Source: Raillietiella orientalis (lineage: Eukaryota). From it: a DNA stretch of 64,000 bases. Below the pieces are notes generated by a model. It was not told the origin of the DNA, searched no databases, and worked only from the letters and a program-made list of their open reading frames with translations. The stretch spans positions 310,001 to 374,000 of the forward strand of contig JAYWIR010000072.1 in the NCBI GenBank assembly GCA_036172245.1, read 5' to 3'. The position numbers and the translations under genes were made by a program. Every line of letters begins with the position of its first letter. The stretch's first letter is position 1. This document shows positions 4,207 through 48,895 of the stretch, one piece after another.

Positions 4207-6941
4207 GCATCCCGTGCTCGAGAGCGCCGCCCGAGCGGGATGTTTCACGACTCTTGCTTCCGGAAGGCGCAGCAGCTATCCGGAGGTAGGAGAGAAAGTC
4301 CATCGACCAGCCTTTTACGAAGGGCGATATCATCTCAGCCAACGGAAAGCTCAAGAGGTGCAAGGCACCAGGGGAGGACGGCCTGCCGGCGAAGTTTTAG
4401 CATACTTTCGCGGCAGAGCTAACTCCCCTGGTACATCAACTTACCTTGCTGATACGAAAGACAGGTGACGTTCCTACTCGTTTCGATCGGCAAAGGTGCG
4501 GTTCCCCACTAATGGAGATCTAAGGAGCATGAAAAACTGGTACCATCACAATGGTGAATGCTGACGCCAAGTTGCTAGCCAACCTTTGGGCATAGCAAAT
4601 ACGAATGGTTGTAAACGCCTTCAACAGCCCGGGGCAGACATGCTCCGGGCTGATGCATCGCGTGCATCACGCAGGAGGTGTTCACGTGCGATGCATGGAG
4701 GCAAACCTGTTTCAATCTTCCACATGGTTAGAGCTCCAACAACGAAGGGGCTTATTGAGCAACCGGAATTTCAATGCGTTCGTCGGTGGAAGTCGGGATG
4801 GTCGGGTGGGGGAGATAACCCTTGCGGTCGCTGTCGACTTGCGTAAGGCATTCGACAGCGTCGACCAGAATCTCATGCTGGAGCTTCTGGAACGCTTGGG
4901 CTTCCCGGCCTCTTTGTTGGTCTACCTGCGCTCGAGATGGCGCGATGCACTCATTAACGTCTTTTTCAGCGGGCAAACCGTGAACGCCGTACCGGTGCGA
5001 CGCGGCATACAAAAGGGAGACAGCTTGGATCCCTTGCTCTTCAGCGCCTTTTTCAAATTGGTGCTGAGATCGTATAGGGCGACTCTGACGCTCCTGCCGC
5101 GCGAATGTCCCAGTACACCTGCGGTTTTGGCATACGCGGAAGACCTGCTGCTTCTGCTACCTATGTCCGCCCCGGCTTCGGAGATCGAGGAGTATTTCGA
5201 CCAGCTGACTCGTGGAACAGGACTAACGGTGAACAGGGCGAAGTCGACCGTCATGCCAATCGGAGAGACGTGCGCAGGGAAGCAGAACTGGGTCCGTTTG
5301 TGGAACCCCACGGTGAGGTACTTAAGGACTTTGGTGTGCCTTTAGGGAATTATTCCCTTGCGGAAAGGTGTTCCGGCTGCCTCCAGAAAGCTCAGGGGAC
5401 GATCGACCCGTTCCAGAACGGCAGTTTATTCCTTCAGGAACGATCCGGGCGTGAAATGCGTTTGCGGCTCCCCTGCTTCGTCCGTTGCTTTCTGTTTGCC
5501 TTCTACTCTGCGGGATCAAGGAAAAGGACGAAGGAGCTCCTAAGGATCGCTTTTCGGGGAACAAGAAGACCCTGAGTCCGTCTTTCGGATTTGTGCGTTC
5601 TTCGTCGAGATGGTGGTCTGGGCCTCCTAACGCTGCAGCGGCTGGAGCTTCAGCTCCAGTTTCGGATAGTTCCTTTGATGACAAATAAGTGGTAATCCCC
5701 CTGGTGCGTCCCTGCACGTCCCCTCGTCGAGCAGAGAAACCAAGGGAAACGCGGGAATCTCGTCCTACTTTGCACTTTGATGACCGAAATGCCACTGCAA
5801 AATCCAGCTTCAGAGGGCGGCCAAACAAGTAAAGACCAACATGAGATCGGTCTTCGTACGCTTCGCGAACAATAGTGCCTGGTTGCCGGAAACCTTTCGC
5901 ACGTGGGCAATGACTCAAGTGCAGAGCCCTCAATACGAGCAAATAGCTCTTTTCCGACCGCACGTCCACCGCACGCTCCGAGAAATCGTCCAGGATCCCC
6001 GAAGTAGAGCGTGCGCACAATGAACCTTTCTTGCTGCGGTACTGCCTACCCTACGGGATCATGTATGAAGCGACATCGCGCCACATTAAGAGGTTGCTGT
6101 TAAGATCGCCACCAGGGTAAAGAAGATCGGGGATTGAAGAACGGGCCGGCTGACCAACGCTGCGACTCAGAGGACCACCCCAAAATGACTGTTGCGCAGG
6201 GGCGAGCTAATGAATGTTTTGAAAGAACATCGCGAGAGGCTCCCGGTGCTCATGGGCTCGCACACTGTCCCAATTAAATGACAACATTCGGCACTGCTGG
6301 TGTTGCATTGGGACCTTCCCTGCATCTCCCGCGAGTCCACTGGCAGCAGGGGGGTTTCAATCCTAATTGTGTGAGGTGTAAGGAGAGGAAAAATCTCACT
6401 CACCTTTTAGTGGATTGTATTGCCCTCCGTCTCTTGCGGGAATTCTTTGCCGCGGCCCTGGGTATCTCCGGAGGCAACCCCTGAGGCGCTTTTCGCCCCT
6501 TTTTCGTCTATTTCGCTTTGCCTACAGCGGCCTGGCTTGTAGCTTAGTGCTGCCTACGCGGGATCGTCGTGGCACGGAGCAAAGCGACACGAGGATCCAG
6601 AGACGGGCATGCCACCGTGTATGCCGCCTGCTTCCTGCGGTTGAGGACGCGATGTCCCATCTAAAATCCTCCATTCAGCAACAGCTTACCGGCATCCTCC
6701 ACAGGATGATGGACCCTCCCAGCAGGCAGTGATCCCTTTCCGCTCCCTCCCTGATTTTTGTTCATTTTTTGTTTTCTTTTTGTTTCGTTCCCACTCCCCT
6801 CTGCTGCCTAGGTCGACCGCGCCGGTCGGCACTCCGGTAGCCCGGATTGCTGATACTTTCTAGGGCGTGGCTGTACTGCCGGTTCACTCAAAGTGTAGAT
6901 ATGTTTACTTGACAAAATAAACGTCCCGGCGAAGCGGGATT
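4207..6941 (+). mobile_element. Tx1-like ORF2 post-endonuclease part to 3' end, degenerate (subfamily D-like)
   Basis: ORF 4605-5345 has AVDLRKAFD, RRGIQKGDSLDP and AYAED; AATAAA at 6916-6921 followed by hairpin. Confidence 0.9.
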
Positions 6942-7092
6942 CAGTCGAGCGCCGATGCCTGCATGAACGCAGGAAGCAGAAGCAGAAACTTTTCGGCATA
7001 GGTCGACACGGCATGCGTGCCAGGACATGAGCTCGGTACGGTTGCCAAAGTCTCCTTGTATGCTCTTAGCACCAACTCAAACTAGATGCTGA
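6942..7092 (-). mobile_element. Short RT fragment
   Basis: Minus strand reads FELVLRAYKETLATVPSSCPGTHAVSTYAEKFLLLLP. Confidence 0.8.
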
Positions 7093-7978
7093 CTTTCATG
7101 ACAGCGATGTTGCGGCGAAGTGGGCGTTCAAAGCAATCATCTCCGGAAAAAAGAAGAAGCTGGGAGAGTGGAAGTCGGGCCAGTCAACAGATGCTGTGAC
7201 CCCGAACACGCCTCCCAATGGACTTCAGAGCGGGATCGCGCTGCTCTATTCTCCTAATGAACATCTAAAGTGTCCTCGGTGCTAAGAAACAAGTCCACGC
7301 TTCCGTCAAAATGACAGAAGTCGGCTCTACTGTTGAAGCATTATGGACTCCATTGCAGCGCCCGCCGACACCACTGGACCTGGGGAGCGGTCGATGCCAA
7401 CTGTGTGAGGTGTGAGGAACAAGAATCCCTCCCCCACCTCATAGTGGATTGTGTTGTTCTTCGCCCCTTTGGTTCCGCTTTGCCGTGGCCTTCGGAATCC
7501 ACTGCGGCAACCCCAGGGACTCTTTAAAAGCCTTCTTCGCTGCCGAAGCGGTCCGGCCAGCAGCCTCGATAGCCGCCTTGTGCTGCCTTTGCGGGATTAT
7601 TGCTGCATGGAGCATGGCCACCGGAAGACCATGCGATAAGGAGGTCATCCAGTGAGCGCCCCAATTCCTGAGGAGGGCATCGCGATTGCCAAATATGGAT
7701 TCGCTATTGCAGGAAGAGCTTGCCGGCATCCTGAGAAGGATGATACGGTCCCAGAAGCAACAGTGATATCTTCCCGTACCCTCCCACTTTTTTTTTTGTT
7801 TTGTTTAATTTTTTCTTTTACCCCTTTCCCCGTGCTGCCTAGGAGGACTGCACGGGTTTCCGAACCGTTGCTCCGGTAGGCTCCGCGTTTCTTCGTGCGT
7901 GGCTGGAGCATTGCTGCAGCCACTGTCATCTTCTTGTAATGTTTATTCTTAAATAAACGACTTGGGAAAATCCAGTTG
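7093..7978 (+). mobile_element. 5'-truncated element, C-terminus and 3' end (subfamily D)
   Basis: HHWTWGAVDANCVRCEEQESLPHLIVDC; AATAAA at 7952-7957 then ACTTGGGAAAATCCAGTTG. Confidence 0.87.
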
Positions 7979-7999
7979 AAAATCAAATCCTTTACGAGC

Positions 8000-25225: not shown

Positions 25226-27802
25226 CCGCTCCGTGGATAGGGAGTTTTTCTTTCCTGGTGTTCCGTGTGTGTTTCGCGGCCGTTGACAGGCAGAAATGCC
25301 TGTGAACGCCGCAGTTTCAGGTGAGGGAGGCGGGAAGACCGCGTCTCCCAAGCGAAAGGAGGTGGGATCACGCCCCACCACTTCTTCTGAACCCGCCACT
25401 ACAGCGAGGGCCTGGAGCGCGGTGGCAGCGTCGATAACACCCGATGTCGCCGCCGAAATCCAATCCTACATCCAGGAGGGCTACAATCCGGCCCTCCTGT
25501 ACAAGGTAGGCATTTTATATTCCCCGTTAAGGGCGCGAAAGTGCGGCAATGCCATCAAAAAGATGGGCATTGCCGACCATGAAATTCTTTGCCTCTCTAT
25601 ACGGAGCGGAGGGCAGTTGGCGGAGCTCATCTGCAAGGATGCAGCTCTTACCCACAAGATGCTCTGCACGCCCGTACAATTTGAGGGCAGGAATTTACTC
25701 CCACACACGGTGGACCACTCCATTGTGGTCCACCTAACAGGGACAACAGTGCGGATGGATGAGAACGCCATCCGCGCTGAACTGGAAAAATACGCAAGCG
25801 TTTTCGCGATGTGGAGAAAGCCCAACACCTTCGGAGTGAATGGTGCATTTAGTGGGCGAGTAGGCGCACGCGCGACGCTTCGAGAAAGCGTACAGCTTCC
25901 CCACAAGCTCCAAATTGGCGACGAGTTCGTCGACATTTGGTTTGTGGGGAAACCTAAGTATTCTGGAAATTGTAAGTCGTTCAAGCATTTGAAAAAGCGG
26001 TGCCCGGACGCAGTTTACCTAAAGTGCTGCGCGAATGGCCACAAAAAGTGGTGTGCCCGATGACCGTCGCTCCAACACCGGAACTTCCGCAAAAGAAGGA
26101 AGAGAAGGCACAAATAGTGATAAACCACACAAAAGGGGATCAGCCGTCGGCTCCGACAAAAGTCGCGCAGCAGGAAAGGGACTCGGTACAGGAGCTCCCG
26201 GAAAAGACTGCCTACGAGAAAGCCTGGCATCTGGTCACCCGTAAAATAAAAATCGTCAAAAAACCGCGCCCGCACCGGAGAAAGTGGTAAAGGGCAAGGG
26301 GAAGGTCGCGCCACGCCCAACAATCAAAGCGTGCAGCGTGGCCATCAAACGCGAGCCGGGGATCGATACTCGCTCCGCTGACGGATCGATGCGATGTGAC
26401 GTCACGCCAGCTGTTCAAGCCGCCGCCGCGCGAACGCCGACGCCGCGACAAAGTCGCGAGCCCAGCGTGAGCAGCGACGACCGGGACTTCAACAAGGCGG
26501 CGGAAGAGTTGGCAGCCATGCTCCAGCAGCCTCCCAAGGCCCAGAAGAAGGCCTTGAGGCGTCCGGCTGAGGCGAAAGGACCGGAGACTTCCGAGTCCGA
26601 AGCCGAAGCCGGCAACGCTCCGGCTGTCGCTCTCCCGAAGCGCAAAGCGGGCCGCAAGGTAGGCAACCCGCGGCGCTCCGCACCTCCACCGGCGGAGGAG
26701 GAAATGCGGTCGGACCACGACGACGGGGAGGCGATGTCCGCGAGGTCTCGCGACTCCTCGCCGGAGACGTCCCTGGCCAAGCAGGATCCTCCAACCACCA
26801 CCACAACCACCGACGGACCGCCTCCTTGCGAGCAACAGCCCGTCGCAATGGATACACAACTCCCGCCTGCTGAACAGCAGGCGGAGGACGGTAAGCAAAC
26901 ACCATAAACCCACCAACGCGTGGACTCTCCTCCTGCCGGCGACTGCGCGTAATCTGTTGGAACGTCAACGGGTTGCGCGACGACGGCAAGAGGAGAGAAG
27001 TGGCCGCCAGCCTGCGGGACTTCGATCTGGCGCTTCTGCAGGAGACGCACGTTCTCCACGCAGATGAGGCCCAGGAAATCTAACAGATCGCAGGCGGGCG
27101 GCTCGTATACCAAAACGGGAGAGACCACACCCGCGGTGTGGCTTTCATGCTGAAGCCAGCCATCGTTAATGCGCTGCGCGACGTGCACTTCGACGGGGAA
27201 GGTCAAATCGAGGAGCTTGTTGCCAAGTGGTCCGACGCGATCGACCTCGTCGTGACCAACGTGTACGCGCCCGGCACGAGCCTTAGGCGCGGGGAACGCA
27301 CTGCGTTCTTCGAAGGCCTGCGGCGAGATTGGCTGGCCGAAGCAGACATGCGAAAGGCGCACCTCATTGCCGGGGACTTTAACGTCCTCCTTCTGGTAGG
27401 TGCGCCCGACATTCGCGCACAGCTGGCCAACGAGATGTGCGCTGCCATGCACGCGCGCAACTTGTTGGCCGGTGACGCCGGGACGGAGACGAGGATCGAC
27501 CACATGTTCCTCGACAACCACCTGTGTTCGCGAGTGGGAAATCGAGGGGCAGTGCCATCCGAACTTTCCGACCATCTGCGGCTCGTGCTAGAAATACACC
27601 CGCGCGGTAGAGGTCCACCCTCCACAGCGTGGCGTTTTCCAGGGGACTGGTTGCGCCTCGCAGGAGCAGCGCAACATCTTAGCTCTTTCCTGCAAGGCTT
27701 TCATCTGCAGTCGCTCGCGGACTGAAACGACTTGAAGAGCTCAGACCGCGAGTTCTGCGACCAGTTTCCCCTGAACCGTCTCCCTCCAGGTTTCGGCGTT
27801 AT
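25226..27802 (+). mobile_element. 5' end, ORF1 (frameshifted) and APE, cut at PPGFG
   Basis: ORFs 25296-26063, 26000-26290 and 26284-26907; WNVNGL, LLQE, NVYAP, GDFN, IDH, SDH. Confidence 0.9.
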
Positions 27803-29903
27803 CACCCGGGTACGCCCGGGGCGTTTATTATTAGACTCTACATGCGTGGTACAAGGCCCCACCACGGCCGTAAACACAGGACCTGTCGGGACACCGAGAC
27901 GCAGCCCGGCGTGGCACTCCGCGACAGCGAAGGGGGATGGGGATAAGACAAAAAGAAAAATAAAAAGAAACAAACAAAAAGAAGTTGGAGGGCAAGGAAG
28001 GGATCACTGGTCGCTGTATGGAGGGCCCGACCGTCGAACGAAGTCCTCGAGATCAGTCTGCATATTTCCCAGTTGGGGCCATCCGGCAGCTCTTCGCAAG
28101 AGCCGTTGGGCATACGGGATGACATATCTGGCCTGTGGACCCACTTCTTCGTTGTTGGCTCCGCTCCATGCCGCCACGATGCTTCTTACTCAGCACAATG
28201 CTGCGATGGCTGCGGCTGGCTGCAGTGCGTCCTTCACGAAGAGGAGCCGAAGAACGTCTCTGGGGGTGCTGCCCGTAGGGAGCCCGAGGGTCGCCCCGAA
28301 CCGTTCTCAAAAGGGGTCGGAGGGCAGCACAATCCACAATAAGGTGGGGAAGCGACTTCCGCTCTCCGCACCTGGCACACGCAGGATCCACAGCTCCCCT
28401 CGTCCAGTGCAAGCGGCGCGCGTTGCAGGGTAGACCCCAGTGCAACAAAAGCAACGCCGACTCTTGCCACTTAAGAAGCAGGATTCTGGATTCTTTCATC
28501 ATCCGATGCCACTTCAGCTCAACCCTGGGGATGGCGAGCAGCTCGCCCCATCTTAATAATCCTCGCGGCTGGACGTTCGGGGTAGTGGCGTCGGCCAGTT
28601 CTCCTGTTGTCCAGCCGCTGATCAACTTCTCGCGTCCCTCGATGCAGCAGGAGACTTGCCACCTTCGCGTTTGGCTGCTGTGAAGTGCTCTCTTCAGGAA
28701 GGGCAGCGCCCTAGCTTGGCAGGTCGTCTCTGTCCACATGCATCTTGCTGGACTCTCCAGGAGATTCCGCAGCGTGCAGCGGGCGAAAAGGCTGCATCTA
28801 AGACGATTCCACGTTTCGTGGCTCCTCTGGTTAACCGCTGCCCACGTTTTAATATTCTCCTCCAGTCAGGCGGGGAAGTTGGCGGGGCAGCAAACCATCC
28901 AGCTGTTCCCCTTCGCCAATGTTGCCATGCGCCCGAGCAGTATAACGCATCTTCGCATCTTCCGGCCACGGCTCAGAAGAAAAGTCGCGAGTCCATCGCA
29001 CCGGGACACACGGCTGGCCAGGAGGCGGGCCGGAGTGCACCAAGGGGTGCTCCACATCTTCGCTGCGATATCGAGGGTTCGCCACCGCAGCTGCTTCTCC
29101 ACGCGCTCCAGCGTTAGGAGGCTCAGACCGCCGTCCCGACGCGGAGCGCACAAGTCCTTCAGAGCGACACGGGGCCTCCCCTTGCCCCAAAGGGCGATAC
29201 GGAGGAGGTCCTTTGTCCGCTTTTTAATTCTCTCTGTGGGGGCGCAAACAAAAAGCGGGGGGCGGAGGAGAGGAGCCGCGAAGGCGTTTCAAACCGCGGC
29301 CCGTTCCGGCAAGTGAAACATGCCTTCCAGGAACGGGCCGATCGCCGCCTAGACTTTTTGGAGGAAGCCGGACCACGCTTCCGCAGGGGAGTAGTTTCCC
29401 AACGGCACACCAAGGTACTTGAAGCACCTCGCCGTGGGGATCCCCAGACGGACCCAGTCCTGCTGCCCTGCCCACGCCGCACCTATTGGCACAACCGACG
29501 ACTTCGCCCTGTTAACCTGCAGTCCGGTCCCGCGGCTGAGCAGATCGAAGAAGTCTCCGACCGCCTTTGCCGAAGTGGTCATTGGCAACAAGAGCAGAAG
29601 ATCGTCGGCGTACGCTGCAACGGCGGGCGTGCCGGGGGACGAGCTCGGCAATGGGGCCAGAGTCACCCTGTACCCTCTCAGCAACAACTCAATCTAGGTG
29701 CTGAAGAGCAGGGGGCTCAGGCTATCTCCCTGCCTTATGCCCCGCCGCACCGGCACGCCATACACCTTTTGACTGCTGAAAGAGACGGTAATTATCGCAT
29801 TCCTCCAGCAAAAGCGCAGGTAGGAAATCAGGGAGAATGGGAAGCCCAAGCGACCCAGGAGCTCCAAGAGGAGTTCCTGGTCTACACAGTCGAACGACTT
29901 GTG
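27803..29903 (-). mobile_element. ORF2 from RT motif (HKSFDC) to 3' end (subfamily C ORF2 type)
   Basis: RRGIRQGDSLSP, AYADD, LERVEKQLRWRTL, CARCGE..HLIVDC; terminal hairpin at 27803-27829. Confidence 0.92.
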
Positions 29904-31890
29904 AGCGGGCAGACCGTGCACGGCATGCCGGTGCGGCGTGGGATCCGGCATTGAGACAGCCTGAGCCCCTTGCTCTTCAGTACCTACTTTGAGTTGGTAC
30001 TGAGAGCGTACAGGGGAACTCTGGTGCACCTGCCGCACGACTGTGTCGGTACGCCGGCCGTTTCAGCATACGCGGACGACCTTCTGCTGCTGCTCCCTAT
30101 GTCCACCCCGGCTGCGGCGGTCGAGGAGTTCTTCGACCTGCTGCAACGTGGAACTGGACTTACGGTGAACAGGGCGAAGTCGTCCGTGATGCCAGTTGGT
30201 GCGGCGTGGGCAGGGCAGCAGGACTGGGTCCGTTTGGGAATCCCCACGGTGAGGCACTTCAAGTACCTTGGTGTGCCGTTGGGGGACTACTCCCATGCGA
30301 AAGCGTGGTCCGGCTGCCTCGAAAAAGTAGAGACGGCGATCGTCCCGTTCCGAGGCGGCAGGTTTTTTCTGCCTGAACGGGCCGCGGTTTGGAACACGTC
30401 CGCGGCTCCTCTCCTCCGCCCCCTGCTTTTTGTTTTCCCCCCCCAGAGAGAGAATCAAAAAGGGGAAAAAGGACCTTCTCCGTATCGTCCTTTGGGGCAA
30501 CGGGAGGGCCCGAGTCCGCTTAAAGGACTTGTGCGCTCCTGGTCGGGATGGTGGTCTGGGCCTCCTGACACTGGAGCGGCTGGAGCTTCAGCTCCAGTTC
30601 CGCTTGTCGGCACTCGTTCCAGAGTTGTGGTGCACCTGTTGGTGCGTCCCTGCACGTCTCCTTCTCCAGCAAGCCACCGGCAAGACGGGACTGACGTCGC
30701 TTCTTGTACTCCGTCGCCGCGTCAACCGATGCGGACTCCAGCTACGGACGGTGGCTGCTCTGTATCGGAAAAACCCAGGATTGCTCACCTGTCGCCCGTT
30801 TAGCGGTAGTGCCTGGTTGCAGGAAACCGTTCGAACGTAGGGACAGTTCGGCATGCAACGTTCCCAACAGGAACAAAGTTTCCTGTTTGGGGGTTACAGA
30901 AGTTGCACGCTCCGCGAGATCCTGGAGGATCCAAAGAACTGAGTGTGGGCAGGAAGAACCCCCCTCGCTGCTGCGCTGCCATCCCTGATGGAACATCTGG
31001 ACAGCAATGTTGCGGCGAAGTGGGTGGTTACAGTAACAATCTCCGGAAAGGAGAAGAAGATAGGAGAGTGGAAGACGGGCAAGTTAACAGACGCTGCGAC
31101 CCCGAGTACGCCTCCCAATGGACGTCTGCGCTGGGGCGCGCTGCTCGATGTTCCCATTGAACATCTTGAATGGCCCCCGGTGCTCATGAACACTTCCGCC
31201 CTTCCCTTCAAATGGCAGGAGTCGGCTCTCCTGTTGCAGCACTGAAGACTCCCCAGCAACGCCCGCCGACACCACTGGACCTGGGGAGCGGTGGACCCCA
31301 ATTGCGTCAGTTGTGGGGAACGGTAGTCCCTCCCCCACCTGCTAGTGGATTGTGTTGCCCTTCGGCCCCTTTGGTTTCGCTTTGCCGCGGCCATCGGTCT
31401 CCCCGGCGGCAACCCCAGGGACGCACTGGAAGCCCTCTTCGTTGACGACGCCCTTCGGCCAGCGGCCTCGTTAGCAGCTTTGTGCTGCCTACGCGGGATC
31501 GTCACCGCTTGGAGCAAGGCTAAGGGAGGACAACGCCACCAGGGTGCCATCCAGACAGCCTCCCAGTTTTTGAGGCGGGCGTCCCGATAGTCCCACCTGG
31601 ATCCAGGAATACAAAAGGAGCTTGCCGGCATCCTGCAAAGGATGCAACGGCCCCACCAGCAACTGTGATCCCTTCCCTTACCCTCCCTACTTTTCTTTTC
31701 TTTTTTTTTTGTTTTGTTTTTCGTTTTTCCCCCTTCCTCCTGCTGCCGCGGTGGACCGAACCGATCTGCGAACCGGTGACCCGGCAGGATCTGTGTTTCT
31801 TCGTGCGTGGCTGGAGCAATGGTCGAGCGACCGCACGTCTTTGTAAATGTTTATTTTACAATAAACGCCCCGGCGTAATCCGGGTGAAAA
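29904..31890 (+). mobile_element. 5'-truncated subfamily D element flanked by a target-site duplication
   Basis: RT to 3' end AATAAACGCCCCGGCGTAATCCGGGTG-AAAA; flanks TCGAACGACTTGTG (29890-29903) and TCGAACGCTTTGTG (31891-31904). Confidence 0.92.
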
Positions 31891-32160
31891 TCGAACGCTT
31901 TGTGGAGGTCGACTGCGAGCGCTAGGGCTCACTTCCCCGCCCAAGGGTCCCTTCCCAGTCCGGCTGGAGGCCGCAATGTGGGGTTGCCGACTTTCCCTAT
32001 CCCTTTCTTTTCTCTTCTCTGCAGGTGCACCCATGTGCTTGCGAAGAAGAGGTTGGCATCCATACTTCGCCCGGGAACAGCAAAAGTCTGCTTTGGGCTA
32101 ATTACGGATTCTGCCACCTGCCCCAGACGCGAAGCCCATAGCCCTGTGATCAACTTGGCG
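31891..32160 (-). mobile_element. RT fragment (AKL to KAFD); upstream continuation of 27803-29903
   Basis: AKLITGLWASRLG..AVPGRSM..AVDLHKAFD. Confidence 0.9.
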
Positions 32161-35133
32161 TGCGGACCTGTTTTTGTAGCGCTCCTCTGCGCCTGGTGTA
32201 AAGCGGTTGATTTCGATTGTGTTTGTGTGTGAAGCATCTGCGATGTCCAATGGCAGAAATGCCTAAGGACACCGCGATGGATATAGGAGGGGGAGAGGCT
32301 TGCTCCTCTCCCCAACCCACGGAGGTGGGGGCAACCGCCCCCACGGAGGCGACGGCAGCCGTACCCCTGAAAAAGGGGGCAACCGCCGCCTCAGAAGCGA
32401 GGGCAGAGGCCCCCTTGAAAAAGGGGGCAAAAGCCCCGCTGGAACAGGGTGCAACCGCCCCCTTGAAAAAGGGGACAACCATAACCCTGGAAAAGCGCAC
32501 AACCGCCTCCTTGAAAAAGGGGGCACCTGCACCCTCGAATGCGTCTTCGGCATCGCCGAATACCTGGAGTTCAGTGGCTGCAGCCCCATCTCCTGCAGCC
32601 CTCGCCGAGCAGAAAGCCTACTTGGAGCAGGGATACGAGCCGTTTCTGTTATACAAGGTAGGCAATCTGTTTATCGGGAACACCGCTCGCAACTTCGAAA
32701 GGGAGTTGCAGTGGTTGAATGTAAAAGAGGAAGATCTGGAAGGTCTTTCCGTGTTGAGTGGTGGTCAACGGGTGGAGGTGACTTGCAGAAATGCAAGCCT
32801 TGCTCAACACCTACTGAATACGTCAAACACACTGGAAGACCGAAAGGTTTTCCCGGTAACGGAGGATCGCTCCGTGGTGACGCACCTCACGGAAGTCACC
32901 CTCCGCATGTCGAAAGCCGACGTGCAGGAGTAACTCGGAAAATACGAAACGGTTCACGCGCTATGGCCCAAGCCCTACGTCTTCCAGAGTTACGGAAGAC
33001 TGTTTAGTGGCATGGCTGGTGCGCGTGTAACCGTCCACGAAAACGGTGGGCTACCCCACAAACAAGACGTCGGCAACGAGACCGTCGACGTCTGGTACGT
33101 GGGCAAGACCAAGTACTGTGGACACTGTGATGCCACAGGGCACCTGAAAAAGCGGTGCCCTCACATCCAGTGTTTCCACTGTGGAGAGAAGATCCACCTC
33201 CGCAAAGTGTGCCCGAAGCGCGAACCCTTGGCTCCCGCTGCCTTGAAAAAGGCCAAAGGGAAACGCGCGGGGGCCACGGAAAAGCCTGCGAAGGCACCCG
33301 TGAGACGGAACCCACAGCCGGAGCCCGAGCCCGTGCAGGAAACGCCGGTCGTGGAATCCACCGACGACGCTGAAAAGAGCGAAGGCTGGCAGAAGGCGAA
33401 GCCTAAAGCCAAGAAAATTAAGAAAACCGAAGGGTCGACAGCGGAACCCGCGACGTCTCCTTTAAATAGGAGACAACGCCGCGCGTTGATCAGCGAATGT
33501 TCGGTCGCTTTGGAGCGTGTGGAGGTACCTGACACCGCCACCGGGGGAGATATCCCCCTCGTCGACGCCGACGATAACGCGATCACGCAAGGCGAACCCT
33601 CTGTGCAAACAGAGGGGGAACCGCGTGACGCGCTCGCCGCTATCGACGAGGCCGCCTTCCAGCAGGCGGCGGAAGAGCTCGCGGCCGAACTCGCCGACCG
33701 TGAGAACGGCGCGCAAAAGGCCTTGCGAAGGCCGGCCGCGACCAGGGCACCTCCGACAGGTGACCACGACCCGGATGCCGGAAGTGCGTCCTCTTCCACG
33801 TAGGCGCCTCCGAAGAACACTGGACGGAAGTTCAAGAATCCCAAGAGGCGCATCCCGACGAAGAGCGAGGGGGAAGCCGGCAGCGTGGGAACGGAGGGAG
33901 GAATTTTCCCACCCTCCGCCACCGAGCAGCGGGCCACCCCCATGGAGGAGAGGGAGCAGGTAGGGCATTGCCTCCCCCTTCCACCGGTGGAGCCTGCGGA
34001 GAAGATGGTCATGGAAGAGGGGGAGCAGACAGCTGAGAACCGCTCCCCCCTGCCGTCCAACGCAGTCAAGGAATCGGCCCCCATGGAAGAGGGGAAGCAG
34101 GTGCGTGAAGCATGCTTCCTTCAACCGTTGCGGTCCGCCGAGAAATCGGCCCCCATGGAGGTGGGAGAACCGCTAGGCGGTGCCCCCATGCCTCCATCCG
34201 TCCCGCCCGACCAGGTGGCGGGAGCATCATTGCCACTTTTCCGGGAATAACACCTGAGCTCGCCTGTCGCCGTCGATTGCGTGTGGCATGTTAAAACGTC
34301 CACAGGCTGCGCGACGACAGCAACAGACAAGACACGGCAGCCACCCTCCGTGACTTCGACCTGGCACTCCTGCAGGAGATCCACGTGATCACCGGGGAGA
34401 ACGCCCAGGAGATCGAGAGGATCGCAGGGGGGCGGCTGGTGTGGCAATGCGGCACCCGATACACCTGCGGCGTCGCGTTTTTCATGAAGCCGGCGGTCGA
34501 CGCTGGCGTGAAGGGCGTGCGCTTCGACGAAGCCGGTCGTGTCGGCCAGCTGATTCTTAGATGGTCCGACACGATCGACCTCGTCGTAACAAACGTATAC
34601 GCCCCGAGCGGTTATAACAGGTACCGGGAACGCGCGGCGTTCCTGGAAAGCCTGAAGCACGAATGACTGGTGGAAGCGAACGTGCGCGTGGCTCACCTGA
34701 TAGCGGGAGACTTCAATCTCCGCCTGCTATCAGGTGAGCTACGCACACAGGAACGGACGGCTAACGAGTTTTGCGCTGCCATGCGCACGCGCAACTTGTT
34801 AGGGGAACTCCCGGAAATGGTCAGCAGCATCGACCACGTCTTCCTGGACGTCGACCTCTGCTCGCAGGTCGGCAAACGGGAGAAAAATGCGTCGGAACTG
34901 TCTGACCATTCCAGATTGATATTCGAGGTGAGTCCGGGCGACAAGGGACCCCCGTCCAGGGCGTGGCGGTTGCCTGGGGACTGGACGCGGCTCTCAGGTG
35001 CGAAGGAACACCTTCGCGAATTCCTGAGAGGCGTCACCCTCCGCAGTCTCAAAGATTGGAACCTCTTCAAGGCCTCGGTCCGCGAGTTCTGCGAGGAGTT
35101 CCCCCTGCACCGCCTGGCTCCCGGATTTAAGGA
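32161..35133 (+). mobile_element. 5' end, ORF1 and APE (subfamily B), cut at APGF
   Basis: ORF1 pieces 32217-32933, 33012-33803 (CGHCDATGHLKKRC) and 33885-34250; APE 34270-35130. Confidence 0.92.
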
Positions 35134-35932
35134 GGACGCACCGTCAATACAACCGACACCCCGCGATCGTCTCGATCTCCTGGACGTCTGCCGCTGTGAT
35201 CACGAGGATCTTCTGCAGCAGGGCCAGGTCGAGCTCACGCAGGGTGTCGGCCGTATCTCCCCTGTTACCGTCGTCGCGCTGCCCGTTGACGTTCCAACAG
35301 GCGACGCGAATCCGACGGCGACTGGCGAGCCCAGGTGTTACTCCTGGGAAGATGGCGATGCGGCGTCCGCCACCTGTTGGGACGGGACGCTAGGTGGAGT
35401 AGGAGGGTCAGGCGCTGCGTGCACCTAGTTTCCCTCCTCCATCGGTAACGGCGCGTCGAGCGGATCACCCTCAGGTGGGGTCGCGCCTACCTGTTGGCCC
35501 TCCTCCATGGGGGCGGGCTGTTCAGGCTCGGCGACTGCAGGGAGGACTTCGCCCCCCTGCTCACCCTCCTCCATGGGGTTGGCCGGCTCGACGGCTTCCG
35601 AGCGTGGGAGTTCCCCCTCCGGGATTCCCACGCTACCGCTAGCTTCCTGCTTCTCCACCTCGCTGGTGGAGGGGAGGCGCCTCCTGGGTTTCTGGGACTT
35701 GCGTCCCGACTTCCTGGGGGGTGCCTCCGAAAAAGAGGATGCACTTCCAGCCCCCAGGTCCGACTCACCTGTGGGGGCCTTTTTCGCGGGAGCCTCCCCC
35801 ACACCTACCTCCATCGTGGTGTCCTCAGGCATCGCTGCCATCGGACACCAACGATGTTCCACACCAAACAACACAAGAAAAAAACCGCTTTCTATCGACT
35901 CACTCGGGAGCGAAGGAAACACACGTCCACTC
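35134..35932 (-). mobile_element. Subfamily C 5' end with internally deleted ORF1 and APE start
   Basis: Near-identical to 59323-59460 joined to 60715-61375. Confidence 0.9.
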
Positions 35933-38877
35933 GCCAAGGGATTCGGCGGATGGGCTCGCAACGAACGGGCGTATTTGTACGCGCGTCGTCACGAGAGGAA
36001 CCCCAATGTCCGTCGCCTGGCCGAATACCGCGCCCGAGCCGAGCGACAAGCCTGGCAATCCGGGTCAGCCAGCATGCTGGATAACCTGGGCCGGGAACGT
36101 TCGTCCCCGTCTGCGGTACGGAATCTCGTGGGGTGTTTTTATTCCTCCCTTTACCTTAAAACACCACCCGAACAAGACGCCTCGCGGCGATTGCTCATGA
36201 GTGGTTCCGTGGCGATAGGGGAGGAGGAGAGAGAAAGCCTTGATGAGCCTTTCACGACCGGTGAAATTCTCGCCGGTATCAAAAGGCTCAAGAGGCGTAA
36301 GGCGCCAGGGGAGGACGGCTTGCCCGCGGAGTTCTTTCAGAGTTTCGCGGAAGAGCTGGCCCCCCTGGTGCTCTAGTTTACAAGGCGAATCCGAGACGAA
36401 GGCGATGTTGTTGCCTCGTTTTGGTCAGCCAGGGTAAGGGTCCTCCCGAAGGGAGGAGACCTCAGGAAACTTTGCAACTGGCGTCCGATCACGATTGTGA
36501 ACTCGGACGCCAAGTTGATTGCCGGGCTGTGGGCTTCGCGATTGGGGCAAGTGTCCAATTCCATAATTAGCCCGGAGCAGATTTACGCTGTTCCCGGGCG
36601 AAGTATGGAGGACAACCTCTTCTTCGCGAGCACATGGATGCACGCGCAGCGGAGTAATAAAGAAGGGAAAGGGAAAATTTGCAACCCTACTTTGGGGCCG
36701 CCAGTGGGACAGGGAAGGGACCCTTATGCGGGAAAGTGGGCGTTAGCGATCGCAGTCGACCTCCATAAGGCATTCGACTGTGTTGACCAGGAACTCCTCT
36801 TGAAGCTCCTGGGTCGCATGGGCTTCCCACCCTCCTTGATTACCTACCTGCGCTCTTGCTGGCGGAACGCGATAATCTCAATCACTTTCAGTGGACAAAA
36901 GGTGTTTGGCGTGCCGGTGCGGCGGGGCATAAGGCAGGGCGATAGCCTCAGCCCCCTGCTCTTGAGCACCTACTTTGAGTTGGTGCTGAGAGCGTACAGG
37001 GTGACTTTGTCCCCCTTGCCGAGCTCGTGTCCCGGCACGCCAGCCGTAGCGGCGTATGCCGACGATCTTCTGCTCCTCTTACCTATGTCCATCCCGGCGA
37101 AGGCGGTCGGAGATTTCTTCGACCTGCTTAGCCGTGGGACCGGATTACAGGTTAACAGGGCAAAGTCGTCACTGTTGCCAGTTGGAGCGACGTGGGCAGG
37201 GCAGCAGGACTAAGTCCGTCTGGGGATCCCCACGGTGAGGTGCATCAAGTACCTCGGTGTGCCGTTGGGGGACTTCTCCCCTGCGGAAGCGTGGTCCAGC
37301 TGCCTCCAAAAAGTCGAGACGGCGATCGGCCCGTTCCTGGAAGGCAAGTTTCACTTGCCGGAACGGGCCGCGGTTTGTAACGCCTTCGCGGCCCTCATCC
37401 TCTGCGCCTTGCTTTTTGTTTGCCCCGCCCCCGTGGAATCAAAAAAGCGGACGAAGGACCTCCTCCGCATAGCTCTTTGGGGCAAGGGGAGGCCCCGTGT
37501 CCCTTTGAAGGACTTGTGCGCTCCGCGTCGGGACGGCGGTCTCAGCATCCTGACGCTGGAGCGCGTGGAAATCCAGCTGCGATGGCGGACCCTCGCCATC
37601 GCAGCGAAGATGTGGAGCACCGCTTGGTGCATTCTGGCCCGCCTCCTGGCCAGACGTGTGTCCCGCTGCGAAGGACTTGCATCGTTTCTTCTGTGCCCTG
37701 GCCGGAAGATTCGAAGATGCGGTCTAATGCTCGGCCGCATGGCAACCCTGGCAAAGGAGAACGACTGGATGGTTTGTTGCCCTGCTAACTCCTCCGCTTG
37801 GCTGGAAGAGACTGCTGGCACCTGGGCCAAGCAGAACCAGAGGTGCGAAGACCGGATGAACTGCCTGCGAGTCGGCTTTTACGCCCGCCGCACTCTCCGT
37901 GAAATTCTTGAATTTCCACCGAGTTGCACGTGGGCGGAAGGCACACCCTTTGTTACGGCGATGCTCTTCCTCCAAAGGGCGCTTCACCGAAGCCGGAAGC
38001 CAAGGTGGCAAGTCTGCTGCCGTATCGCAGGCAGAGAGAAGATGATGAGCGGCTGGACCATGGGAGAGTTGACAGATGCAACGAGCCCTAGTCTCCAGCC
38101 GCGTGGATTAAGAAGATGGGGCGACCTGCTCGGCATTCGATTGGATGACCTGGAGTGGCCCCCGGTTCTACTTGGATCCAGGATTCTCCCCTTGAAGTGG
38201 CAAGAATCGGCGCTTCTGTGGCTGCATTGGGGTCTACCCTGCAACGCGCGCCGCTTCCACTGGACGCGGGGAAGAGTAAATCCTGCGTGTGCCAGGTGTG
38301 GGGAGCGGGATTCGCTCCCCCACCTCTTAGTTGAATGCCCTGCCGTTCTGATTCTTTGGGATCGTCTGAAAACGGCCCTCCGGATACCGGATGGTGGCAA
38401 TGTTGGATGTGTCTTCAGTCTTTTCTTCGTGCGGGACGCCCTCAGTCCAGCCGCAGCCCTGGCAGCACTTTGCTGCATTCGTGGTATCGTGGCGGCCTGG
38501 AATGATGCCGAAGATGAAGACTGCATAGTGAGGGACGTCATCGAGTATGCTTCTCGCTTCCTGCAGAGAGCTACCCGATGGCCCTATCTAGGAAAGCTGA
38601 GAATGGAACTAGAAGGCATCCTGCAAAGGATGGGCGCTCCCAGCAGTTTTCTGTGATCCCTTTCCGGCCCTCCAAACTTTTTTTTGTGGTTTGTTTTTCT
38701 CTTTTATTTTATTTTTGTTTTTTCCTCCATCCTTCTCCACTGCCGAGGAGAGCCTCACCGGGCTGCGTCCCGGTGTCCCGGCAGTTCCGGTATTGCGTGG
38801 CCGTCAGTGGGGCCTTGTACCACGTTCTGTATTGACCGTTGAAATGTTTTTAATAAACGTCCCGGCGTATCCGGGTG
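35933..38877 (+). mobile_element. ORF2 from AKGFG to 3' end (subfamily C ORF2 type), few stops
   Basis: ORFs 36497-37213 and 37235-38656; AATAAA at 38852-38857 then CGTCCCGGCGTATCCGGGTG. Confidence 0.93.
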
Positions 38878-44594: not shown

Positions 44595-46524
44595 AGAAAT
44601 CTCTTGCGCTTGTTCTGCGGAGATCACGCGGATTTCCTGCAGCAGCGCAAGGTCGTAGGACTCCAGAAGGGCGGCCATGTCTCGTGTCCTGCCGGCATCT
44701 GTCATGCCCTTCACGTTCCAAACGGCGATGCGCAGACGACAGCGAAGGAGATTCCCGGCATTACTGCTGGGAAGATTAAGGTTTGGGGGAGCCCGCCTCT
44801 TGCGAGGCGGGCGGAATGTCCATGGGGGTTACGGCCTTCTCAGGCACCTGAGGCACCTGTTCGGCCTCTACTTCTTCCATCCCCTCCGTGTCCGTGCGTG
44901 GGAGTCTCTCGGGCGACGGGTCCCGCGAGTTTCCCACGCTCATGGCACCCTTGCTCGCGGAAGCCATCTCTTCCCCTTCGACGGGAGAAACGAGCTTCCT
45001 TGGCTTTGTGGACTTACGTCCAGCCTTCTTGCGAAGTGCCGTGGAAACGAAGGCTTCGCTTCCGGCCTCCACCTCGTGGTCGGTGGTGGGGGACTCCTGA
45101 GGGGAAGCCAAACGCCTAAAGGCCTTCTTGTCTGCCTTGGAGGGTTCTGGCTGCAACGAGGCAGCCAGTTCCTCCGTGGCTCGCGCGAAGGCTACGTCAT
45201 CGATGGTGGTGTCGATGACGGACGCCGCCGCCGGCTCGCTCCCGTCGCTGTTGACAGAGTCAACAGGGAAGAGGTCGTCGGTAGCGGGGAGTTCTTTCTG
45301 GCAGCGTTGGGTAACATCGGGAATGCGTTCCACGACGACTGTGCACTCTTTAATTATCGCGATACCCTGCTCTTTCTTCTTCTGTTGGTAGGCGATTTTT
45401 TTTTCCATCCTCCTCTCCTTATTTGATTTTTTGGCCGTACCCACCTGCCACCCAGGCTCCTTGCTTGTTTTCTCGACTCGTTCGGCGTTGTTCGATGGGG
45501 TCTCGGGTGCGGCCTGGTCCTTGAGCGCGGTTGGCACAGCCTTCGCGGCAGCTTTCGCCACCAGCATTTTCTGCAGAAGCCTGGCACGTTTTATAAGGTT
45601 TCTCTTGGAAACCACCTGCACTGCTGCTTTAGGGCACACCTCCCTGGTGTGTCCCATGGTTCCGCATACTTGGCACTGCACATTGGGACACCTCTTTTTG
45701 AGGTGGCCCGACGTATTGCAGAAGCCACAGTATTTCGACTTCCCCACATCCCAGAGGTTGACGGTTTCGCCTTCGACCACCAGTTTGTGGGGAAGAGTGC
45801 AGCCCTCCTGAACAGTCATGCGCGCAGCAGGGAGGCCGTGTTGCAGCCCCGTGAAGTCCTCGAAAGGACTAACTTTCGTCCACTGCGCGTGGACCGTTCC
45901 AAATTGTTCTAGAGCGGCGCGAACCTGTTCTTTGCGCATTCGCCCGGTTACGCCTAACAGGTGTACCACCATGCTGCGGTCCGCCGCAGTGATGAGGAGC
46001 CTGCGCGTCCATATCACAACGGGGGTTTTAAGCTGTCGTTGGGCCAGGTCTGCTTGTTTGCAGATGACCTCAACGTACTGACCCCCGCTGCGGATGGTCA
46101 TAGCGCTGAGCTCCTCCTCTTTCACATCGAGAGCGCGCATGCCCTTCGAGAAGGCGCCCGAACTCTCTAAAGAATATAAATTGCCTACCATGTAGAACAA
46201 TGAGGGGTTGTACCCCTCCTCTACATAGGCCGACAATTCCGCCGCGGCTGCAGGCGATGGCGCCGACACAACGGCGCTCCACGCCCGCGCTGCAGCGGGG
46301 ACCGATTCTGTGAGGGCGGATGCCCCCACCTCCATCGCCTCTGGGGACGACGTTGCCGCCGTCCCCTGGCTCTCCATCGCCTCTGGGGGCGCCGTTGCCC
46401 CTGCCCGCTGACCATCCCGGGTGGTCGCGTCAGGCATCGCTGCCGGATCGACCACCGAACCACACGACGCTTGCCCTGGGGGAGACTTCCTGGCACAAGG
46501 AGCACAGAGAAAACACGTCAACCC
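44595..46524 (-). mobile_element. 5' end, near-intact ORF1 and APE start (subfamily D), cut at QEIS
   Basis: ORF 44776-46521; APE AVWNVKGM..LLQE..QEIS. Confidence 0.92.
44776..46521 (-). CDS. Gag-like ORF1 protein (two CCHC knuckles, disordered acidic tail); probable ATG at about 46437
   Basis: 581-codon open frame with CGFCNTSGHLKKRC and CQVCGTMGHTREVC. Confidence 0.85.
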   Translation of the reverse strand: MTCFLCAPCARKSPPGQASCGSVVDPAAMPDATTRDGQRAGATAPPEAMESQGTAATSSPEAMEVGASALTESVPAAARAWSAVVSAPSPAAAAELSAYVEEGYNPSLFYMVGNLYSLESSGAFSKGMRALDVKEEELSAMTIRSGGQYVEVICKQADLAQRQLKTPVVIWTRRLLITAADRSMVVHLLGVTGRMRKEQVRAALEQFGTVHAQWTKVSPFEDFTGLQHGLPAARMTVQEGCTLPHKLVVEGETVNLWDVGKSKYCGFCNTSGHLKKRCPNVQCQVCGTMGHTREVCPKAAVQVVSKRNLIKRARLLQKMLVAKAAAKAVPTALKDQAAPETPSNNAERVEKTSKEPGWQVGTAKKSNKERRMEKKIAYQQKKKEQGIAIIKECTVVVERIPDVTQRCQKELPATDDLFPVDSVNSDGSEPAAASVIDTTIDDVAFARATEELAASLQPEPSKADKKAFRRLASPQESPTTDHEVEAGSEAFVSTALRKKAGRKSTKPRKLVSPVEGEEMASASKGAMSVGNSRDPSPERLPRTDTEGMEEVEAEQVPQVPEKAVTPMDIPPASQEAGSPKP

Positions 46525-46549
46525 TCGAGCGCATCAGGCGTTCGATTTT

Positions 46550-48895
46550 CACCCGGATCTCGCCGGGGCGTTTATTATAAAACAAACATTAACAACGGCG
46601 TGCAGTGGCTGGACCATTGCTCCAGTCACGCACGAAGAAACACTGAGCCTGCCGGGTCACCGGTTCGCAGACCGGTACGGTCCACCACGGCAGCAGGGGG
46701 AAGAAACAAAAACAAAAAACAAAACAAAAAAGAAAAGAAAACTTGGGAGGGTAACGGAAGGGATCACAGTTCCTGGTGGGGCCGTTGAATTCTTTGCAGG
46801 ATTCCGGCAAGCTCCTTCTGTATTCCTGGATCCAGGTGGGGCCATCGGGACGCCCTCCTCAGGAACTGGGATGCTGGCTGGATGGCACCCTGGTCGCGTT
46901 GACCTTCCGTTGCCTTGCTCCAAGCGGTGACGATCCCGCGTGGGCAGCACAAAGCTGCTAACGAGGCCGCTGGCCGAAGGGCGTCGGCAACGAAGAGGGC
47001 TTCCAGTGCGTCCCTGGGGTTGCCGTAGGGGAGTCCGATGGCCGCGGCAAAGCGAAACCAAAGGCGATGAACAGAAACACAATCCACTAGCAGGTGGGGG
47101 AGGGAGTCCCGTTCCCCACACCTGACGCAATTGGGGTCCACCGGTCCCCAGGTCCAGTGGTGTCGGCGGGCGTTGCAGGGGAGTCCCCAGTGCTGCAACA
47201 GGAGAGCCGACTCCTGCCATTTGAAGAGAAGGGCGGAAGTGTTCTTGAGCACCGGGGGACACTTCGGATGTTCAATGGGAACACCGAGCAGCGCGCACCA
47301 GCGCAGAAGTCCATTGGGAGGCGTACTCGGCTACGCAGCGTCTGTTAACTGGACCGTCTTCCACTCTCCAATCTTCTTTTTCTTTCCGGAGATTGTTACT
47401 GTAACCACCCACTTCGCCGCAACATCGCTGTCCAGATCTTCCATCAGGGAGGGCAGCGCAGCAGCGAGGGGGGTTCTTCCTGCCCACGCTCTCTTCTTTG
47501 GATCTTCCAGGATCTCGTGGAGCGTGCAACTTTTGTAACCCCCAAACAGGAACCTTCGTTCCTGTTGGGAGCGTTGCATGCCGAACTGTCCCCACGTTCG
47601 AACGGTTTCCTGCAACCAGGCACTACCGTTAAACAAGCGACAGGTGAGCAATCCTGGGTTTTTCCGATACAGCGCAGCCACCTCCATAGCTGAGTCCGCA
47701 TCGGTTGACGCGGCGACGGAGTGCAAGAAACGACGTCAGTCCCGCCTTGCCGATGGCTTGCTGGAGAAGGAGACGTGCAGGGACGCACCAACAGCTTCAC
47801 CACAACTCTGGAAGGAATGCCGACAAGCGGAACTGGAGCTGAAGCTCCAGCCGCTTCAGCGTCAGGAGGCCCAAACCACCATCCCGACGAGGAGCGCACA
47901 AGTCCTTTAAGCGGACTCGGGCCCTCCCGTTGCCCCAAAGGGCGATACGGAGGAGGTCCTCTGTCCGCTTTTTAATTCTCTCTGTTGGGGGGCAAACGAA
48001 AAGCAGGGGGCGGAGGAGAGGAGCCGCGAACGTGTTCCAAACAGCGGCCCGTTTAGGCAGGAAAAACCTGCCGCCTCGGAACGGGTCGACAGCCGTCTCT
48101 ACTTTTTGGAGGCAGCCGGACCACGCTTCCGCAGGGGAGTAGTTTCCCAACGGCACACCAAGGTACTTGAAGTACCTCACCGTGGGGATCCCCAAACGGA
48201 TTCAGTCCTGCTGCCCTGCCCACGCCGCACCAACTGGCATCACGGACGACTTCGCCCTGTTCACCGTAAGTCCGGTTCCCCGATGCAGCAAGTGGAAGAA
48301 CTCCTCGACCGCCGTAGCCGGGGTGGACATAGGGAGCAGCAGCAGAAGGTCGTTCGCGTATGCTGAAACGGCCGGCGTACCGGCACAGTCGTGCGGCAGG
48401 TGCGCCAGAGTTCCCCTGTACGCTCTCAGTACCAACTCAAAGTAGGTACTGAAGAGCAAGGGGCTCAGGCTGTCTCCCTGCCGGATCCCACGCCGCACCG
48501 GCACGCCGTGCACGGTCTGCCCGCTGAAAGTAACATTGATGAGTGCGTCGCGCTAGCAGGAGCGCAGATAGGTTACTAATGAGGCCGGGAAGCCCAAGCG
48601 TTCCAGAAGCTCCAGAAGGAGATTCTGGTCGACGCAATCGAATGCTTTTCGCAGGTTGATTGCGACCGCAAGGGCTTCCTCCCCTACCCGACCATCCAAC
48701 ATCTTGCCGGCGCACGCACCGGAATTCCGGCTGCGCACCAAGCTCCTTTCATGTTGGAGCTCTAGCCAGGTGGAAGCGTGGAACAGGTTCGCCTTCATGC
48801 TTCGCCCTGGAACAGCATATGTCTGTTCCGGGCTGATGAAGATGTTGGCAATCCGTCCCAGACGCTCTGCCCAAACCTTTGCTACCAACTTGGCG
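46550..48895 (-). mobile_element. ORF2 from AKL (RT) to 3' end (subfamily D)
   Basis: INLRKAFDC, RRGIRQGDSLSP, AYAND; highly similar to 29904-31890; hairpin at 46550-46576. Confidence 0.93.

Follow-up and report, generated by a model that had tools for sequence, protein, structure and literature searches.

The stretch analysed here is 64,000 nucleotides of Raillietiella orientalis contig JAYWIR010000072.1 (positions 310,001 to 374,000, forward strand; hereafter the window, with positions counted from its first nucleotide). It is a eukaryote-style nest of retrotransposons lacking long terminal repeats (non-LTR), of the long interspersed nuclear element (LINE) type. Element D, a LINE copy within this nest, is a real target-primed insertion. 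It lies antisense in an older LINE copy, designated h, where it splits the reverse transcriptase (RT) at the residues HKAFD of motif A. The insertion in itself is ordinary. Insertion of the D lineage is probably sequence-specific, and we consider it likely that D arose by target-primed reverse transcription and that its lineage prefers the KAFD-coding sequence.

D retains the C-terminal Cys motif and the 3' untranslated region (UTR); its last features are AATAAA, a hairpin at 31867-31886 and the tail AAAA (31887-31890). Its terminal letters at 31890 are ...CCGGGTGAAAA, and the longer tail sequence is AATAAACGCCCCGGCGTAATCCGGGTGAAAA. It is flanked by two direct copies of a 14-bp target-site duplication (TSD), identical at 12 of 14 positions. 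Position 29890 is the only one among 61,986 in the window that shows a match of at least 12/14 at the 2001-bp spacing, and the background rate of such matches at other spacings is 8.8e-6. Translations of the minus-strand flanks read ...AVDLHKAFD and HKSFDCVDQELL.... By tblastn, the alignment of reference residues 721-828 covers 32273..31890 and that of residues 824-1369 covers 29903..28266; these ranges overlap, so HKAFD is read twice in h. Deleting D together with either duplicate leaves h in frame as ...LALAVDLHK(A/S)FDCVDQELLLELLGRLGF..., i.e., ...AVDLHK(A/S)FDCVDQELL.... The empty site is found in the uninterrupted paralog j, to which the two halves of h map at 36504-36777 and 36764-38763, overlapping by exactly 14 nt. 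The 3' end of h at 27800 is itself antisense in the endonuclease/RT linker of a plus-strand element, and the upstream part of h ends at 'DAKL' against full-length plus-strand element A's 5' end (boundary ± about 3 nt). Coordinates of these and other features are given in Table 1.

D shares 92.3% identity over 1987 nt with a second copy, D-sib. D-sib runs on upstream where D stops, indicating that D is 5' truncated. D and the host RT are only about 81% identical, so D is not a local inverted duplication. It is very improbable that the locus is misassembled or arose by rearrangement at the DNA level, whether through inversion, gene conversion or ectopic recombination of LINE copies. Such repeats are hard to assemble and at least one junction of the nest (35141/35142) goes beyond simple insertion, but D has a complete tailed 3' end and a clean 5' truncation relative to D-sib, lies between direct 14-bp repeats of host sequence, and is much closer to D-sib (92%) than to the RT it interrupts. 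The TSD, the 5' truncation, the short A tail and the empty-site paralog together identify a genuine target-primed insertion, as the original prediction had claimed. Its coordinates and sequences for D and the flanks, the split of a minus-strand RT at HKAFD, the 14-bp duplication with 12/14 identity and the bare AAAA tail were all confirmed.

The 3' flanks of the D-lineage copies share one register. The 14-mers that follow D, D-sib and the more distant relative d are TCGAACGCTTTGTG, TCGAACGCCTGATG and TCAAATCCTTTACG. All three resemble antisense KAFD, with the same insertion point and orientation, and differ by 0, 2 and 3 mismatches, respectively, from a KAFD variant in the window. Among the 127,974 14-mers of the window, 12 lie within 2 mismatches of a KAFD variant and 42 within 3 (9e-5 and 3e-4). 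With up to 3 mismatches, TCGAACGCTTTGTG has 17 matches against 6.6 expected, and eight of these are the two TSD copies, five intact KAFD sites and the remnant in front of element E. At D-sib and d, a remnant of 14-15 nt is the whole surviving target, and full-length elements (E and E2, respectively) begin directly after it. The first bases of full-length elements were set by alignment of nine 5' ends. The remnant at d, TCAAATCCTTTACG, matches the KAFD site of element c at 11/14. A further KAFD junction comes from another public sequencing run, X1, whose joints are those among the matches listed; X1 is the one DNA run listed as carrying the sequence, and no RNA run is listed. One X1 contig joins an E-like 5' end (46530) via ACGC to 36767 on the RT sense strand. 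This 5' end thus lies 15 nt inside a KAFD site that is otherwise intact, a distance equal to the length of the remnant before E. The distance from the TCGA start to the 5' junction is 14-17 nt for D, E, E2 and the X1 contig, four cases in all; 17 nt applies only if the AGC of E2 is counted as spacer.

Three related 3' ends had been quoted in the original prediction, and all exist: AAAATCGAACGCCTG (minus strand, from 46549), AAAATCAAATCCTTT (7975) and AGTCGAGCGCCG (6943). The last of these, at element c, was described as another RT position with a similar sequence, and this holds: the 3' end of c lies in an antisense RT fragment (6947-7092), about 15 codons past YADD, with the flank TCGAGCGC. 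The proposed relatedness of D-copy 3' flanks was borne out within the window for all three D-lineage ends. The flanks at 46545 and 7979 are KAFD-like as proposed, but they are short remnants before full-length elements and not RT bodies. The proposed recognition of about TCGARCGC by subfamily D stands insofar as the register recurs at D-lineage ends; the 8-mer alone is not sufficient, since 17 of the 20 TCGARYGC sites in the window are unoccupied.

These empty 8-mers are one of several observations that weigh against a KAFD preference. Of the eight RT copies in the window that extend across KAFD, seven have no insertion at the motif, and D is the only D-lineage copy with both flanks in an RT body. 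The two TSD copies of D differ at two adjacent bases, differences that fit the age implied by the 8% divergence of D from D-sib, or an untidy 5' joining. The upstream flank of d is RT at about residue 885 and not KAFD, so the d locus needs an extra deletion. The X1 junction is a single contig with a depth of about 6 and 61 letters on its shorter side. The 64-kb window holds no D-lineage endonuclease, and the identity of the agent that recognises the sequence is therefore something we infer. A metagenome scan with the conserved 3' motif AATAAAYGYCCCGG..CCGGGTG retrieved 10 loci, none of which has LINE 3'-UTR context upstream; seven of them represent a single unrelated sequence in nearly identical copies. 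Finally, the identity of d to D-sib (75.5%) equals that of E2 to E (76%), so that the d/E2 and D-sib/E junctions could descend from one duplicated block.

This last point bears on a different explanation, in which insertion is targeted regionally to the LINE island, for example by chromatin as proposed for centromeric Zepp clusters, D fell on KAFD by chance, and the flanks at 46545 and 7979 derive from a single old tandem junction through segmental duplication. A copied block would give the equal identities, the window is rich in LINEs throughout, seven of eight KAFD sites are empty, and Zepp clusters have been described as nests that target existing copies (PMC8226300, PMC3446292). We nevertheless regard regional targeting as unlikely, because D and D-sib are 92% identical, lie in unrelated contexts, and have the first 8 flank bases and the register in common, for which the chance is about 1e-4. 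In addition, each of three other sites has received related inserts that are less diverged than their hosts; of the 10 3' flanks that can be read within a LINE body, nine are antisense (0.02 by a two-sided binomial); and the X1 contig supplies a further KAFD junction. D and D-sib are firmly independent hits, and d may be a further one. A preference for the KAFD site is supported by these flank sequences, from few events.

In the mechanism we propose, D would be a dead, 5'-truncated copy of a LINE with an apurinic/apyrimidinic endonuclease (APE)-type endonuclease and an RT, which entered the motif-A coding sequence (VDLHKAFD) of h in antisense. As read from the junctions, the sense strand of h would have been nicked first, inside the Asp codon, between ...AAAGCGTTCGA and the following C. 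The 3'-OH at ...AAAGCGTTCGA would then have served as primer for reverse transcription of the D RNA, beginning at its ...CCGGGTGAAAA end, and a second cut, in the opposite strand at a distance of 14 nt, would account for the 14-bp duplication. The D lineage would prefer approximately TCGAAYGC plus context. The element's own endonuclease presumably reads the KAFD sequence, since sequence recognition by the endonuclease is established for the R1 and Tx1 clades according to PMC4640811. Full-length E-type elements probably prefer the KAFD sequence too and may represent the 5' half of the D lineage, to which E would then belong. Repeated hits on one site would give tandem copies separated by a 14-15-nt duplicate. 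In a variant of this mechanism, target-derived tags in the RNA would assist, as in melanogaster-type R1.

Among known systems, the behaviour of the D lineage is closest to that of R1. R1 elements of insects are described as APE-type, with a fixed first-strand nick and a second nick 14 bp away that produces a 14-bp duplication (PMC2718515). The same source reports Drosophila R1 tandem arrays that have the 14-bp duplicate between copies and are explained by new insertions into that duplicate at the resident 5' end, and some R1 lineages that carry upstream target sequence in their RNA (PMC2718515). The D/E lineage resembles R1 in its APE-type relatives, the 14-bp duplication and the tandem layout on a 14-15-nt duplicate. 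Unlike R1, which inserts into 28S rDNA, D targets the RT motif A coding sequence of another LINE, in antisense. In a rival reading, insertion is homology-guided: the RNA and not the endonuclease would choose the sequence, in that a read-through target tag on the RNA of a master copy lodged in a KAFD site anneals to other KAFD sites and fixes the junction. Melanogaster-type R1 transcripts are reported to carry flanking 28S sequence, giving precise junctions (PMC2718515), and two 5' junctions in the nest (about 35932 and 59324) have 16 nt, GCCAAGGGATTCGGCG, in common, as if a tag had travelled with the RNA. Guidance of this kind is improbable for D, which is 5' truncated and hence without a 5' tag, yet has a normal duplication. 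A nick at the site would still be required, and no 3' read-through copy occurs: all 13 3' ends in the window stop within a few bases of the hairpin. The preference for the KAFD sequence remains the reading we favour.

The L1-type LINEs Zepp of Coccomyxa/Chlorella and ZeppL of Chlamydomonas form one cluster per chromosome, at the presumed centromere. They are described as nested LINE-only islands with many 5'-truncated copies and tandem 3' ends, and in Coccomyxa subellipsoidea C-169 Zepp has 61% GC against 53% in the genome (PMC3446292, PMC8226300). The nest analysed here resembles Zepp in that elements cluster within copies of themselves (nine of 13 3' junctions lie inside other copies) and in its GC enrichment, with 56-64% over 24-64 kb against 53-55% over 1-24 kb. 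Unlike Zepp, which was compared by description, the elements here have tails of 3-5 nt and comprise several diverged subfamilies, each with its own site. No Zepp protein occurs in the 13 protein-database matches and ten named clusters listed.

Tx1L, a member of the Tx1 clade, targets a DNA transposon. Tx1-clade LINEs (Tx1L, Keno and others) are described as APE-type elements with sequence-specific insertion in multicopy sequences, including transposons (PMC4640811). The nest LINEs may resemble this clade, to judge by the automatic name of their closest ESM-Atlas cluster ('Transposon TX1 ... protein', score 0.97). Their C-terminus gave a weak zf-RVT match (E=0.0098; 17 bits, under the Pfam cut-off of 27.5). 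The C-terminal CxxC...HxxxxC pattern is legible by eye in the translations. Human L1 inserts by target-primed reverse transcription, with 5' truncation and a duplication of about 14 bp, and encodes ORF1 (open reading frame 1) and an endonuclease-RT ORF2. Its nick sites follow a loose consensus, TTTT/AA, and its copies have a long poly(A) at the end. The nest LINEs share with L1 the target-primed insertion, the 5' truncation, the duplication of about 14 bp and the ORF1/ORF2 layout; unlike L1, they have a conserved hairpin followed by 3-5 nt at their end and insert repeatedly at exact sites. A search of a limited literature library found no LINE aimed at an RT motif and no account of target sites inside LINE bodies that are specific to a subfamily.

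The nest has at least five subfamily-specific sites that are hit repeatedly, and KAFD is one of them. Elements f and k (78% identical) both end at GA/TCTCYTG in an antisense endonuclease N-terminus, and their host flanks are 59% alike. Elements h and j (79% identical) both end at GGYTTCGGSG/ in an antisense endonuclease/RT linker, and their hosts are 67% alike. This linker site is adjoined by these two 3' ends and by three full-length 5' ends, all antisense to the host. The full-length elements with 5' ends at about 35932 and 59324 share the 16-nt sequence mentioned above, and their hosts, j and n, diverge just beyond it. The full-length elements A and A2 (78% identical) both start at ...CAACTTGGC/ in an antisense RT 'DAKL', with hosts h and D-sib 68% alike. 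In each of these three pairs the inserts are more alike than their hosts, which argues for independent hits and against copied blocks. A segmental duplication behind these sites was rejected on the same comparison (inserts 10-19 points more alike than the host flanks), a rejection that covers f/k, h/j and A/A2 and not d/E2 versus D-sib/E. A fourth tandem junction lies at the 3' end of element g (23880), where a 17-nt spacer precedes the downstream 5' UTR. This spacer (23860-23876) matches, in antisense, 30602-30618 in D and 47812-47828 in D-sib with 3 mismatches each, giving three matches where 0.09 are expected. By this sequence match, the g spacer looks like another tandem array on a LINE-internal site.

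Thirteen 3' ends were examined within the window; a fourteenth runs off the window start. Nine of them (b, c, e, f, h, D, j, k and m) are antisense within another LINE, three (d, D-sib and g) are tandem with an antisense-derived spacer, and that of n abuts the sense strand of the truncated ORF1 of m. An X1 contig (joint 38877 + ATAA to 35149) also terminates at the m site. At 35141/35142, the endonuclease sequence of A stops 11 nt beyond the linker site and runs directly into an antisense endonuclease fragment whose start is the m site. No 3' end lies at this junction, and simple insertion cannot explain it. An X1 joint (35127 to 35991) suggested that A (32160-35141) and j (35933-38880) form a single full-length element split by an insert of 863 bp; this reading was rejected because the repeat of about 21 nt is only about 50% identical and the outer junctions lie at different sites. 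A complete Russian-doll ordering of the nest was attempted and dropped; several halves fit, and g and k do not.

Table 1. Elements, target-site sequences and junctions in the window (a slash marks the junction).
Feature	Position	Strand	Description
Element D, 5'-truncated LINE copy	29904-31890	+	mid-RT (reference residue 866) to 3' UTR
TSD copy 5' of D, TCGAACGACTTGTG	29890-29903	+	minus strand encodes HKSFD of host h
TSD copy 3' of D, TCGAACGCTTTGTG	31891-31904	+	minus strand encodes HKAFD of host h
Host LINE h downstream of KAFD	27800..29903	-	RT residues 824 to end, 3' UTR
Host LINE h upstream of KAFD	31891..32162	-	RT residues ~745-828
Empty site, 14-mer once	36764-36777	-	uninterrupted paralog j, 78-81% identical to h
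D-sib	46546..48894	-	92.3% identical to D, reaches further 5' to RT 'DAKL', same tail as D (GTGAAAA)
KAFD-antisense remnant TCGAACGCCTGATGC, 15 nt	46531..46545	-	between D-sib tail and first base of E
Element E	44776..46530	-	full-length type: 5' UTR and open 585-codon ORF1, head-to-tail behind D-sib
Element d	7100..7978	+	D-lineage relative, 76% identical, 5' truncated, tail AAAA
KAFD-like remnant TCAAATCCTTTACG, 14 nt	7979..7992	+	followed by full-length E2
Element c	4221..6944	+	68% identical to D; flank TCGAGCGC at 6945
f and k junctions	10331/10332 and 44599/44600		antisense endonuclease N-terminus; GA/TCTCYTG
m junction	51212/51213		antisense endonuclease N-terminus; /TCAACCG
Linker-site (GGYTTCGGSG) junctions	27799/27800, 38880/38881, ~35932/35933, ~59323/59324, ~25290		antisense to host
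DAKL junction CAACTTGGC/GTGCGGAC	32150-32167 (h/A), 48885-48902 (D-sib/A2)		antisense; elements' first base
CCHC ORF1 of other LINE family	13721-14560	+	within 12700-21500
Endonuclease-like stretch of other LINE family	14742-15152	+	within 12700-21500
RVT_1 of other LINE family	20737-21495	-	within 12700-21500

Site-specific APE LINEs and Zepp-like self-nesting are known; the use of a fellow element's conserved motif as target, and the partitioning of sites by subfamily, would be the features of interest here. The original prediction proposed that the main site is a motif which the host cannot easily mutate. The host of D is another LINE and not the organism, and among the seven KAFD sites of the window there are already synonymous differences and some replacements. 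As a tentative picture, to which we give somewhat less than even weight, the nest may hold a guild of divergent LINE subfamilies whose endonucleases would each be adapted to their own short piece of conserved LINE coding sequence, with hits nearly always in antisense. The target sites would be the KAFD motif, 'DAKL' in the RT, the linker between endonuclease and RT, and two sites at the N-terminus of the endonuclease. Mutual and self-parasitism, instead of insertion into host genes, could then produce a LINE-only island, with the KAFD lineage as a hyperparasite whose target is kept by selection on the catalytic motif of its victim. If the preference is true genome-wide, a retrotransposon would find a safe harbour in a sequence that other retrotransposons must conserve, and exact nick sites for each subfamily would be a concrete, testable mechanism by which islands made up of LINEs alone arise, for example the centromeric Zepp-type clusters in green algae. 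APE endonucleases of new, defined specificity would also be of interest for engineering site-directed insertion. If the preference fails genome-wide, D is simply one well-preserved nested LINE insertion.

All 13 3' ends carry AATAAA, a short GC hairpin and a 3-5-nt tail, with the hairpin directly before the tail within the last 30 nt. The hairpin arms vary by subfamily (CCCGG/CCGGG, TCCCG/CGGGA and ACTTGG/CCAGTT), which suggests that the terminal hairpin is a structure recognised by the RT. Single folds gave the hairpin in seven of the 13 (b, c, d, f, g, m and n); the other six stretches ended before or within it. RNAalifold of twelve 3' ends returned four weak pairs, its alignment having missed the terminal hairpin.

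A six-frame map of the window, with one long ORF2 (34295-38656, stops read through) and the ORF1 of element E as queries, located about 14 ORF2 3' parts, eight RT copies spanning motif A and nine ORF1 copies. The nest LINEs have the features of APE-type LINEs (L1-like group): an N-terminal ORF2 endonuclease in the relatives of D (D itself is truncated and has none), an RT domain, and the insertion signature of TSD, variable 5' truncation and 3' tail. Pfam searches identified Exo_endo_phos in copy m (54202-55062; E=2e-16, 60.9 bits, cut-off 24.5) and RVT_1 in copies m (E=1.6e-21) and j (E=1.1e-20); the residual RT of D scored 26.6 bits, under the 29.6-bit cut-off. Motif A (xDxxKAFD) and YADD are present in the RT domain, and the ORF1 of E carries two Cys-His knuckles. 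The nearest database proteins are one metagenome protein with 61% identity, followed by unannotated proteins with 29-39% identity, which by HMMER are from turtle, pseudoscorpion, tick and the charophyte alga Closterium. A different LINE family, with no match to the RT query of the main family, occupies 12700-21500 (Table 1). The step up in GC content at 24001 coincides with the start of the dense nest.

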